Shown piece after piece: positions 27,165 through 45,920 of a DNA stretch of 64,000 bases (its first letter is position 1; every line of letters starts with the position of its first letter). The translations under genes were made by a program, and so were the position numbers. The stretch lies in the NCBI GenBank assembly GCA_964187785.1, contig OZ076412.1, forward strand, positions 49,724,001 to 49,788,000, given 5' to 3'. Source of the stretch: Amphiscolops sp. MND2022. Its lineage: Eukaryota. The notes below the pieces were generated by a model. The model saw nothing but the letters and a program-made list of their open reading frames with translations. It had not been told where the DNA came from and made no database searches.

Positions 27165-27874
27165 TGTAACGTCCGGCTAGCGACGCACATCTAGGAAGAG
27201 GGGACAATGCCTAGGATGCTTAAACAGGAGACCGTTGTCTTACTACATACCTAGGCACTAGTTTTTCATCCCAAAATGGTCTCCATGGGGGACTTTTCTA
27301 ACGTCTAAGGAGGCTCCTCTAATTAGAGCTCCGAGGCAACGCGCCGGCACTCTCAAAGTCCGGACACGCCCCACAAGCCTGTAAAAACGTATCCTAAGGT
27401 TTTAGCGCGTTTCTGCCATCTCCTACATACCTCCGAGGTCCAAAAAGGTGTTTATCCGAAAATTGTCATTTCAACAGTTATGGGCATGAAATGCCGACCT
27501 AGAAGGTCAGGCACGGGAAAAATAGCAAAATACATCAACATAAATCAGCAAAATAGAGGGGGATAGGCCCCAAGTGGAAATAGAGTTACTGTTTGTGGGT
27601 TTTCGGGGATCCAATCATGTAGTTCTGGAATGGCTCGGCTTTCCCAGGGAGGACACAGCACCGGGTAGCGTTCTTTGAATTCTATCCCATGGATATTCAT
27701 GTCGTCAGCCGTCTTTTTCTTCTTTTTCTTCTGTCCTTCTTCTTGTTCACACGTTCTCTCTTTCTTTTTTCTGGGCTTTAGGGACCTGCCAGGTCGGCCA
27801 TTTTGATTCGCACCTTTTTTGGTTCTTGAACGAATTTTTCAACGAAAATTTGGTATTGACTGGTGGACGTTACA
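27165..27874 (-). repeat. Giant Gypsy 3' LTR
   Basis: Differs from 45212-45920 by 2 substitutions and 1 indel in my comparison; 10-bp terminal inverted repeat. Confidence 0.97.
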
Positions 27875-27882
27875 TCCTCCCC
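27875..27882 (-). promoter_or_regulatory. Polypurine tract (GGGGAGGA)
   Basis: Immediately precedes the 3' LTR TGT on the minus strand. Confidence 0.75.
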
Positions 27883-28459
27883 GGGCCGTAGTTTGTCGTC
27901 CTCGGCAAACGAGAGGATGCTCGCACCCAAAGGGTACTCTGAGGTCCACAGAAAAGGTCTTATGTCAAAGCTACGTTGATATTACACTATTATTCCTTTC
28001 GCCTCACTACTACATGTCTAGCACCTTGAAGCCATCGAATTCAAAAAGCACTGATTTTCAAATTAAAAATTTTACAGTCGGATTCTTTCTTTAAAAAGGT
28101 TTTTTTACTAACTACTCAGTTCAAGTTAAAATTTCTTTTTCTAAAATAGGGCCCCTGCGCGGCCAGATGAGTAACAACAACTTTTGGGCTTGGTAGAAGT
28201 TTCCAATTCAAATCAAAACGGGAGGGCACCGAACCGGGACCCACCCAGAGGATGTAACTATATTGCATTGTTACAATGGTAGCAAAGTATAATATACATC
28301 AAACAAAACTCAGGAATTAAGGTTTATTGCACTGAAAGTTTTCAGCACCAGTAAGATGGTGTAGCACAACTAAAATCAAGAATTGGCATTAATACATTGA
28401 CGACAGGGTCCTTTATGCTCAATTATGTTCTAACAGTCTTGAGGGTCCAGAGGACTCCT

Positions 28460-31400
28460 TTATTCCAGCAGTTGATCTTGTGGGGTTTCTTGGACTGAGG
28501 TGCTGCCCATGGCATCCACCGTGTTCTGATACTCTTCGTCTATTGTCAGCAGATTATTGAGCTCTGACTCTATGTCCGCTGCCTCCAAGTTCGAGATATT
28601 GGTTTCCACTTCATCTCTTACAGGAGTGGTGGCTTCAGAGAACGTGAAGTTATTACCAGTCATAGGTTCCCCTGATGGTGGCATGACGTCCGGCACATCA
28701 TCTTGTGCTCTTTCCACCAACATTTCATTGGAGTCTTGACTCACGTGGGGTGTAGGGAAGACGGTGCGAGAGCTGCCAGAGGCAGCTTCCCTCAAATCGC
28801 TAATTCCCGGGATAGCCTCGACTGATTCCAAGTTCGGCAAACCGTCCGCTAATTCTTGATGGCCATATTGGATGAACAGCTGCCTGAACGTTCGTATTCC
28901 CCTAGCGTACTCTTCGCCCACTGCTCGAGTACGTTCTCGTTGGAGACCATGCAGACGCACGAATATCTCTAGTGCCATACGCGGATTGCTGGGAACGTCA
29001 GTGTTCACGGGCAAATCTTTCTTGCTTGGTTCCTTGGCTACTGTCGGAATAGTTGTCGGCAGCTGTTGGAAGGTCTGGTGTATAGCGAGGTCCACGAGCT
29101 CCGGCTGGGCCCAACACGTAATGGTATTCAAGATTCTGGCGGTGTGCTCGCGGGGTTCTGTCCTCGCACAATATATTCTGGAAGTGTCACACGCATAGGG
29201 ATACAATAACCTAGTAGGTTCTTCTCCTTTTCGACGACCACCCAATCTTTGGATAATTGTTCTCAAGATACGCAGGACAACTGGCATGTCCCATCCTTCA
29301 AATGTCGCCACTGCTCCATTATTTGGATCAATAGGGGTGTGCAGCCAAACTACAGGATGGATTTCCATCGGCAAAGGGAGCGAGCTACGTGCTCTCGCCT
29401 TGATCAAGGAGAGATAGTTGTGTTCCACTTGTTGGCGGTCTTTGATTACGGTATACGCCATGGGAGGTCGCAAGTTGGCAAAGCTGTGTATCACTGATTG
29501 ATAAGTGGGACCCTGAAGGGGCCCATCAGAGGTCACGAAATGTAGAATCGAGAGGGAAGGGCTCACTGCTGCCACTCGCAGGGTTTGCGTTGGATAGCGT
29601 AGGGCCATGAGTGCGCCGAAGATGGGCCAGACTATCGGAGCAATGAGGGGCATTAGGTCCTCTGTTTCTACGAGCATTAACGTTGCAACTTGTGTAGGGA
29701 ACAGGAACCCAGGAAGTTGATTGGGGTCTCGGTTAATAGCTGGGCACTCATCCAGAGGATGCATAACGCCCGAGACATTGACCCAGGTGGAATAAATCCA
29801 CACTAGAAGTGCTTGAACGTTTAAGTCCAGCTGCGTCTTTAATTTCAGGGAACCCGCTGGGTCTAGGGTTTCAATGAGCGCAGATACCCAACCTCTTTGA
29901 TTCTGCGAGAAGACTAGGAAGCTGAACAGGGCTGAGCCTCCCTTGTTGAGCACGAACTTTTGTATGAGGGCCGATGGTCCTCTGTACATCATGGTTAACC
30001 CTACGGCCATCAGGTACGCTAGTAGTTCACTAACGGTCGCTCTTTCCATGGCCTCCATGTAGAGTCGCATTCGCTGCTCATCTAGGCCGTACTCGGCTTG
30101 TACTAAGGAAGGAAGCCAGAAGGGAGAGATGTTGTGGAGAAACACGGGGAATGTTATGCCCAGTCGGTCCGCGACTTGGCCCAAAGGTTCTCGTAGTTGA
30201 TCGTGCCATGTTTGGTACGTGTGCGTCGGCTCTTGAATATTCTTTTGTACAACGTCTTGAGCCAGTATCAACAGCATGGCCAATGTGGGTGATCTTTGCC
30301 CAGGTTCAGCATCCAATGATATTTGAGCCATGGGGAAGATGGAGGAATTCTTTCTATCACCCTGAACCGCCTCGGTTTCTTTCATTAGCTTAGTGAGTTC
30401 CTTGTGAAACTTGGGTTCATGTGTTTTTTCGTCTATAGTTGACTCGTCCCGGCGTTCAAACCAGAGGTTATCCACCAGGTTATTGCGCTCACTTTCATTT
30501 GGGTCGTTTACGATTCTGTCTCCACGCTCATTCAATGATCGGCGAGCCATTTCCATCCCGTAGTCGAATGCTGTTGCTTCATCCACTACCATTTGGGAGT
30601 TTCCACGGTAACCGACGTATGATTGAAGGGCTTTTGAGACTTCAGCAATGAAGGCTGGGTAAGAGGCTTCACAAGGGCGCCAGCTATTATTGCTGATGCG
30701 TAAATTGGGGGCCACAATGTAAAAAGCCAGATCTCTTGCGTACGCTGCCTCCATTACTAGATATAAGAATTGCTGAAGGGTCCGAGGAAGGTGCATGTAG
30801 CCTGGAGGCGACATAAATACCGTTCCAGTGACAGCTTTCCTTCTGCGCATAGTTTGGGCAATATTCGCCATTGTCTCCACGTAGTTGGTCACTTCGTCGG
30901 TGACGAACCCCTCAGTAAATCTTTCGTGGTCTGGTCGGAAAAATTCCAAGGTCCCTCGCAGAGCGAGGTGATCTATAACATTTGAATATACCAGCAACGG
31001 AGGTAATGGGATGGTCTCTGTTCCCGCTTGGGTGAATACTTTGTCGGTCACTTCTGCCATTTCGTTCAGTGTTGTACAGGGCATGTTCATTATTCTAACA
31101 TCCATGAGGGTATTGTGGGAGTTGAATGAAGACTTCATCGTCGAGTCGACGAAGAAGGCTATTCTGGTTTTCTGCAAGAGATCCTTTCCCATGGGCAGGA
31201 TTGTAATGGGGTCCCTCGCATAGTTTTTTGTTCGCAAGCGATCTTCGTCGAAGCGGCCAGGGCGCTGTCGGAGGAAGTTGTCAGGAATACGCATGTATGT
31301 CGAGTTCACTCTCTCCAATTCTGCTCGCATGCGATTGAACCATGGGGGGCATCCATCTTGAGTGAACACTGGTTTCTTGACGGGACGATTGTAGAGTACT

Positions 31401-45177: not shown

Positions 45178-45195
45178 ATCCCTCTGTGGTCGCCA
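45178..45195 (-). promoter_or_regulatory. PBS, tRNA-Arg(TCG)-like (TGGCGACCACAGAGGGAT)
   Basis: Its complement ATCCCTCTGTGGTCG-CCA has the form of a tRNA T-arm/acceptor 3' end; 16 nt from the LTR. Confidence 0.7.
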
Positions 45196-45211
45196 TAAAA
45201 ACTATTCCAGA

Positions 45212-45920
45212 TGTAACGTCCGGCTGGCGGCGCACATCTAGGAAGAGGGACAATGCCTAGGATGCTTAAACAGGAGACCGTTGTCTTACTACATACCTAG
45301 GCACTAGTTTTTCATCCCAAAATGGTCTCCATGGGGGACTTTTCTAACGTCTAAGGAGGCTCCTCTAATTAGAGCTCCGAGGCAACGCGCCGGCACTCTC
45401 AAAGTCCGGACACGCCCCACAAGCCTGTAAAAACGTATCCTAAGGTTTTAGCGCGTTTCTGCCATCTCCTACATACCTCCGAGGTCCAAAAAGGTGTTTA
45501 TCCGAAAATTGTCATTTCAACAGTTATGGGCATGAAATGCCGACCTAGAAGGTCAGGCACGGGAAAAATAGCAAAATACATCAACATAAATCAGCAAAAT
45601 AGAGGGGGATAGGCCCCAAGTGGAAATAGAGTTACTGTTTGTGGGTTTTCGGGGATCCAATCATGTAGTTCTGGAATGGCTCGGCTTTCCCAGGGAGGAC
45701 ACAGCACCGGGTAGCGTTCTTTGAATTCTATCCCATGGATATTCATGTCGTCAGCCGTCTTTTTCTTCTTTTTCTTCTGTCCTTCTTCTTGTTCACACGT
45801 TCTCTCTTTCTTTTTTCTGGGCTTTAGGGACCTGCCAGGTCGGCCATTTTGATTCGCACCTTTTTTGGTTCTTGAACGAATTTTTCAACGAAAATTTGGT
45901 ATTGACTGGTGGACGTTACA
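45212..45920 (-). repeat. Giant Gypsy 5' LTR
   Basis: Direct repeat of 27165-27874. Confidence 0.97.

Follow-up and report, generated by a model that had tools for sequence, protein, structure and literature searches.

The 64,000-nucleotide stretch of Amphiscolops sp. MND2022 analysed here (contig OZ076412.1, hereafter the window, from a 1.07-Gb eukaryotic assembly) carries at 27165-45920, on the minus strand, a Ty3/Gypsy long terminal repeat (LTR) element of 18,756 bp. It is probable that this element is a frameshifted copy, lacking a target-site duplication (TSD), of a young Gypsy family with two open reading frames (ORFs), and that the lineage to which this family belongs makes 3-bp TSDs and carries accessory folds that serve in binding or as scaffolds. 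From their sequences, these folds are likely to be catalytically inactive. An earlier note on the same DNA had described a giant element with near-identical LTRs, and both its size and the similarity of its LTRs were borne out.

A Gypsy family with two open reading frames

The element shows the order protease, reverse transcriptase (RT), RNase H (RH) and integrase, direct LTRs of the TG...CA type, a primer-binding site and a polypurine tract, and its RT is nearest to those of Ty3/Gypsy. The 5' LTR (45212-45920, 709 bp) and the 3' LTR (27165-27874, 710 bp) both read TGTAAC...GTTACA and are two substitutions and one gap apart, and the polypurine tract (27875-27887) abuts the 3' LTR; like all features of the element given below, they lie on the minus strand. 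Three long frames are free of stops, over 1193, 2140 and 1403 codons. Pfam recognizes zf-CCHC in the first, RT, RNase H and integrase in the second, and no family in the third. Gag (39169-42552) comprises a capsid-like region, a CCHC knuckle, a first protease unit and the start of a second, and in other copies is the 5' part of a single Gag-Pol frame. RT and RNase H are at 37022-38098 (Pfam E 4e-36 and 8e-27), and the integrase at 35198-36259 has an H2C2 motif, a DDE core with D, D and E present, and a C-terminal GPY/F-like region.

The three frames had been taken as a three-ORF design, but the break between ORF1 and ORF2 (near 39170-39180) falls within the second protease unit and is specific to the window copy. 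A 601-bp probe from ORF3 gave 487 candidates in the genome; 40 were scored, every one 98-100% identical. Ten loci of the window's own family (family A) were taken in halves, and nine gave the 5' half, the tenth being an internally deleted copy. Gag-Pol is open from gag into pol in eight of these nine near-identical copies and broken elsewhere in the other, and the window frameshift is common to none of them. A programmed ORF1/ORF2 frameshift was ruled out, as the sister copies read through. The family thus has two ORFs, one encoding a Gag-Pol of about 3,220 residues (a length derived by mapping to the relative P0013) and an accessory ORF of 1,364 residues, which is whole at seven of the ten loci. 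The same layout was found in six more distant copies of subfamilies B and C, private stops and shifts aside, and in eight copies of family D (74% RT-RH identity, about 30% in ORF3), with many frames of 3193 codons. Our queries did not recover the families of the relatives P0111, P0116 and P0012 from this genome.

The window copy had also been considered a fresh and intact insertion, which does not agree with its frameshift and with its flanks (AGA and TAT), which form no TSD. About 7 kb of the upstream flank recur on C8 as a 99% duplicate, and the downstream flank is unique, with a 200-N gap 291 bp past the other LTR. This copy is probably either an LTR-LTR recombinant of two insertions or an assembly join. 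The family itself is young, since the LTR pairs of 20 family-A copies with a TSD are only 0-2 substitutions apart.

Some further observations concern these junctions. The duplicated segment, at window 45923-53073, corresponds to G000:C8:44327000-44337197 at 99%, and the C8 junction has a short inverted-repeat element where the LTR would be. In all three family-A copies without a TSD (the window copy, L106 and L110) the downstream flank begins with TAT, which may be due to chance. The first nine flank bases, at window 27156-27164, match a variant of the spacer between LTR and primer site at eight of nine positions, and this may equally be fortuitous.

Integration, priming and the leader

Ty3/Gypsy elements typically have TSDs of 4-5 bp. 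Of 53 insertions from five related families, 49 have a TSD of exactly 3 bp (A, 26/29; B and C, 6/6; D, 7/8; E, 10/10) and none has a longer one, and a control in which the flanks were paired by shuffling gave a mean of 3.0 and a maximum of 9. The 53 are the insertions with both flanks readable; L040 (3 bp) and two E copies whose 5' end could not be read were left out, and of a further three pairs outside this set, two have 3 bp and one has no 5' LTR. One insertion lies in a sister LTR, where the empty site has a single CTG. A TSD of 4-5 bp with misplaced LTR ends was ruled out, as the bases adjoining the TSD vary freely. According to the available parts of the respective papers, Drosophila Gypsy families with at least eight sites have 4-bp TSDs, with single-site outliers of 2-3 bp in the same table (PMC3276498, Table 3), CsRn1-like elements also have 4 bp (PMC2582038), and retroviral integrases make cuts 4-6 bp apart (PMC10045372). 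No Gypsy family named as having a 3-bp TSD came up in our literature searches, whose coverage did not extend to Repbase, Dfam, GyDB and supplements, where such families may be listed, and the accessible portions of PMC2836005 and PMC4455052 contain nothing on TSDs of this length.

The primer-binding site (45178-45195) is an 18-nt stretch complementary to the 3' end of the host tRNA-Arg(TCG) plus CCA, and is separated from the LTR by a 16-nt spacer (45196-45211), which has the same length in families A, B, C and E and 15 nt in D. A search pattern for tRNA-Arg(TCG) that includes the T-loop had 257 matches in the genome and none in the control, and ARAGORN called Arg(tcg) at the pattern match in L051 and L055. 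In B and E (L077, L080, L083, L086, L089 and L156) the primer site matches tRNA-Lys(TTT) instead, for which there are 662 pattern matches, and in A, C and D it matches tRNA-Arg(TCG); these are the tRNAs used as primers. By sequence, then, the primer was switched in B and E with the 16-nt spacer kept, despite 91-94% RT-RH identity to A. Units resembling tRNA-Arg(TCG) and tRNA-Lys(TTT) form long tandem arrays at G000:C9:57.54-57.58 Mb and C7:5.22-5.25 Mb.

We propose that these elements follow ordinary Gypsy replication with three twists, namely a 3-nt stagger, a long primer offset and pseudo-enzyme modules. Given the standard priming mechanism and the 16-nt spacer, reverse transcription would leave a 16-nt extension at the end of U5 that has to be removed, and the integrase would trim it to CA and make cuts in the target that are staggered by 3 nt.

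The non-coding leader (42553-45177) is 2.6 kb long. Within it, a block at 43620-44220 is 76-93% identical between subfamilies though synonymous sites are saturated, which makes it a candidate packaging or regulatory element; its covariation is weak (8 of 169 pairs) and it had no match in Rfam. About 290 bp of leader found in eight of nine family-A copies are missing from the window copy (near 42600-42630, between A-rich runs) and from L008. At the other end of the element, a candidate splice acceptor (32660-32668), a T-run followed by CAG, lies 106 nt upstream of the accessory ATG. The site reads TTTTCAG in A, B1, B2 and C and TTCTAG in B3, and splicing probably yields the RNA from which the accessory protein is made; our search for a conserved splice donor gave no convincing one.

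Additional domains and the accessory protein

The earlier note had proposed a doubled protease, a dUTPase-like spacer and tandem macrodomain-like units, and these are supported to differing degrees. The second protease unit (38942-39303) is of the active type, with a DTGS motif. The first (39346-39729) has no catalytic Asp (relatives show LEAP, LEPT or LSEP at the DTG position), and its likeness to a protease is weakly supported (hhalign of the two units, probability 31%, P 5e-4), although positionally sensible. The D-T/S-G motif is absent from the first unit and present in the second in all 14 aligned database polyproteins, down to 57% RT-RH identity, and the first unit is 83-92% identical across subfamilies. 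The Asp-less unit probably pairs with or restrains the active one, which would keep the single long Gag-Pol from being cut too early. The spacer that follows (38603-38905) is degenerate and its assignment weak: the herpes dUTPase family PF04797 matches the relative P0116 with E 0.033, there is no Pfam match in the window protein, and the five catalytic motifs of dUTPases could not be recognized by eye in the alignment.

Of the two macrodomain-like units, unit B (32933-33370), at the C-terminus of Pol, is the better supported, since its profile matches TARG1/C6orf130 (PDB 4J5Q/2L8R) over the full domain with E 1.2e-5; Pfam Macro reaches E 0.025 in one of seven members. In TARG1, K84 and D125 are catalytic, and the glycine-rich loops of macrodomains bind diphosphate. 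Both loops are replaced in unit B, partly by acidic residues, and the Lys and Asp positions are occupied by Arg and Ser. Unit A (33563-34045) is conserved in family D and in P0111, and was assigned weakly from its alignment to unit B (hhalign probability 11%, P 3e-3).

As the earlier note had supposed, the extras are maintained in a young family. They occupy the same position in families A-D, which rules out a nested insertion as the source of ORF3 or the macrodomains, and ORF3 follows directly downstream of macrodomain B at 20 of 21 loci, the last being family E, which was added by hand. Three pairwise comparisons gave a proportion of synonymous differences (pS) of 0.65-0.98, that is, saturated. 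The corresponding nonsynonymous proportion (pN) was 0.01-0.06 for RT, RNase H and integrase. For the first protease unit it was 0.04-0.12, for the two macrodomain units 0.17-0.20, for the spacer 0.20-0.26 and for the part of ORF3 that is folded 0.16-0.30. Amino-acid identity of the folded accessory domains is 55-92%. With pS saturated, these pN values show that all the extras are under purifying selection.

That other copies might lack ORF3 had been named as an observation that would speak against a maintained set, and it was in part made. Family E (L156/L157, at G000:C8:44338874-44353962, and L161-L183) is about 15 kb long, with an intact gag-pol, both macrodomain units and no ORF3; its first copy has identical LTRs and all 40 scored matches are 97-100% identical. 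In place of ORF3 it has a different segment of 1.1 kb with the acceptor-like sequence TTTTACAG kept and a short frame, and it also keeps the leader block. In the tree, E is nested among families bearing ORF3, with D outside, and therefore the absence of ORF3 in E is a loss. The accessory ORF may then be optional in cis, being either dispensable or borrowed from sister families. The RT-RH of the whole lineage forms a long-branched clade with 100/100 support and is 34-42% identical to named animal Gypsy sequences, which fall outside it; the 13 named database matches included in the tree were not assigned to Gypsy clades.

The accessory ORF (28460-32554) encodes 1364 residues from the first Met and belongs to no Pfam family. 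The protein consists of a small N-terminal domain, a low-complexity linker, an SGNH fold, a helical region and an acidic tail. It has 12 homologues in the full-length range, all unnamed, and 494 representative clusters at E<=0.001; Pfam, phmmer and hmmsearch against PDB, and Atlas gave nothing useful, and matches to dPPR and Med5 were treated as noise. An AlphaFold model from 108 sequences (at least one row of which, P0249, is misaligned) has a predicted local distance difference test score (pLDDT) of 67, and one from ten sequences has 46. The larger model is confident for residues of about 460-670, where the SGNH/GDSL hydrolase fold (30593-31219) mostly has pLDDT values of 84-97. This region aligns with 1BWP (VIA-align Z 10.8, root-mean-square deviation 3.4, 171 aligned residues) and its match list is mostly SGNH hydrolases. 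Foldseek also places SGNH proteins first, with the ZfL2-1 esterase (PDB 4C1B) third at E 0.32 and none at E<=0.001. The block residues, placed by motif and secondary structure, include VDST of block I and NxxDH of block III, and are well conserved (D470 95%, S471 85%, T472 100%, N525 92%, D528 86%, H529 93%). Neither the Gly of block II nor the His of the block V DxxH has a conserved counterpart; at the place of block V there is a conserved Arg-Pro.

Outside the SGNH fold, a hydrophobic stretch (29600-29656; Kyte-Doolittle 19-mer mean 1.85-2.28) is kept in four families and is a candidate membrane-contact helix, with low model confidence at this place. By analogy with the retroelement esterases described in the accessible part of PMC5408684, the accessory protein probably uses a non-catalytic SGNH pocket and this one helix to bind lipid or membrane, and so would help in the localisation or transport of the particle. 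In the distant relative P0126 (58% RT-RH identity), a GDSL domain of canonical type (Pfam E 9e-7) precedes an SGNH-like unit that is degenerate. ORF3 aligned with this second unit over blocks I-III with a probability of 3%, and the P0126 arrangement hints, with weak support, that the dead SGNH unit arose by tandem duplication.

The earlier note had suggested possible anti-defence (ADP-ribose) and membrane- or lipid-interacting modules. In a modified form of this view, the extras would be active enzymes directed against host defence or acting on membranes, with the macrodomain removing or binding ADP-ribose and the SGNH domain being an esterase with a rearranged Ser-His site. The conservation of Ser471, Asn525, Asp528, His529 and Arg626 down to about 25-30% identity would suit this proposal, as would the macrodomain Asp position and some glycines retained in the distant P0111, the canonical domain of P0126, and the rotifer Vesta ORF3 esterases, which have intact residues in the part of PMC5408684 available. 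We nevertheless judge it unlikely, because the macrodomain of this family has the TARG1 pair and the two glycine loops for phosphate binding replaced, the SGNH fold has neither the His of block V nor any DxxH, and family E spreads without ORF3. Even less probable would be that the accessory ORF is a Rev-like factor for RNA export or packaging, made from spliced RNA like CERV of Cer1, which recognises the 600-nt leader block and has the SGNH fold as a scaffold only. The conserved acceptor-like site, the identity of the leader block at saturated synonymous sites, the basic low-complexity region and the precedent of CERV (available part of PMC10309623) are in line with such a role, but family E has the leader block without the ORF, covariation in the block is weak, the conserved hydrophobic helix suits membranes better, and no sequence link to CERV was found, none having been specifically tested. 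That ORF3 stands in for env, conferring infectivity on the particle as a fusogen or entry protein, is very improbable. Its place is that of env, a splice acceptor probably precedes it, and it contains a single hydrophobic stretch, but this lies 380 residues from the C-terminus, there is no above-threshold hydrophobic stretch at the N-terminus, what is modelled with confidence has an SGNH fold, and Foldseek gave no viral fusogen among its BFVD matches, with none at E<=0.001.

Our preferred interpretation, a young two-ORF family with 3-bp TSDs and likely inactive folds, has to be set against several points. The copies used were best matches and are biased to young and intact insertions. A 3-bp TSD is not unprecedented but the rare low end of the range of LTR elements, given as 3-6 bp with no family named in the accessible part of PMC10045372. 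The acceptor-like site was not seen in family D. Scores are weak for unit A, for the first protease unit and for the dUTPase-like spacer. In the accessory protein, model confidence is low over much of the last 500 residues; no fold was assigned to them, which does not speak for a new one. The conserved Ser471 and His529 could, from the sequence, form a different active site. A further-reaching view, which we hold only tentatively, is that of an undescribed deep giant-Gypsy lineage with an integration geometry of its own (3-nt stagger, U5 overhang of 15-16 nt), a two-lobed single-chain protease with one Asp-less lobe, and an SGNH domain with a new Ser-Asp-His-Arg site or ligand that would be shared in trans between sister families.

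Comparison with known elements and significance

With Ty3/Gypsy elements such as yeast Ty3, the family shares Gag-CCHC, the order of the Pol domains, TG...CA LTRs, a tRNA primer site and a polypurine tract, and the best PDB match is Ty3 Gag-Pol (E 6e-133). It differs in its size of 18.8-19.1 kb, the long Gag-Pol of about 3,220 residues, the doubled protease, the pair of macrodomain-like units and the 3-bp TSD. A dUTPase between protease and RT and a non-env GDSL/SGNH ORF3 are already described for the rotifer Gypsy elements Vesta, Juno and TelKA, whose ORF3 has also been gained and lost among sister families; in these bdelloid elements the S, G, N and H residues are intact, whereas the present family lacks the His block and has the domain embedded in a protein of 1364 residues (PMC5408684, as far as accessible). 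The words 'macro' and 'TSD' do not occur in the text of that paper. Our searches found no papers on Gypsy elements bearing macrodomains, or on the whole combination, with Repbase, Dfam, GyDB, subscription papers and supplements being outside their coverage.

An SGNH fold in a retroelement accessory protein is also known from the ORF1p esterase of ZfL2-1/CR1/RTEX (PDB 4C1B), which differs in belonging to non-LTR elements, in its gag-like position and in being catalytically active, and which is thought to serve ribonucleoprotein assembly and membrane targeting (PMC5408684, accessible part). TARG1/OARD1/C6orf130 (PDB 4J5Q, 2L8R) matches unit B; here the domain is fused after the integrase, doubled and altered at its catalytic positions. 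CERV of the C. elegans element Cer1 is likewise a non-env accessory protein of a Gypsy element made from spliced RNA, with a role in RNA export (PMC10309623, in part). Elements of the errantivirus type that carry env have a fusion glycoprotein with a signal peptide and a C-terminal anchor, which hydropathy and fold do not indicate here.

The window holds several other repeats. A BEL/Pao element (8208-16560, minus strand) has LTRs of about 300 bp that are 97% identical, frames with stops and a 23-bp tandem array at 16077-16217. A decayed Gypsy element (58004-64000), cut by the window end, has fragments of RT, RNase H and integrase and LTR-like repeats 95% identical, and a fragment of an integrase zinc finger lies at 21375-21740. 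Near-perfect long palindromes were found at 12785-12897, 50250-50392, 48460-48515 and 56639-56698, one of them within the BEL element.

The length of a TSD reflects the spacing of the integrase cuts and the degree of target bending. A whole lineage in which this length is fixed at 3 bp and the primer site is offset far from the LTR is a natural test case for what determines the stagger and for the trimming of long ends. The repeated retention of dead enzyme folds by purifying selection, together with an accessory gene that can be dropped, bears on why retroelements keep large extra genes. Common LTR finders have as defaults a minimum TSD of 4 and a maximum span of about 15 kb. As elements of 19 kb with a 3-bp TSD fall outside these values, such lineages may be under-annotated.

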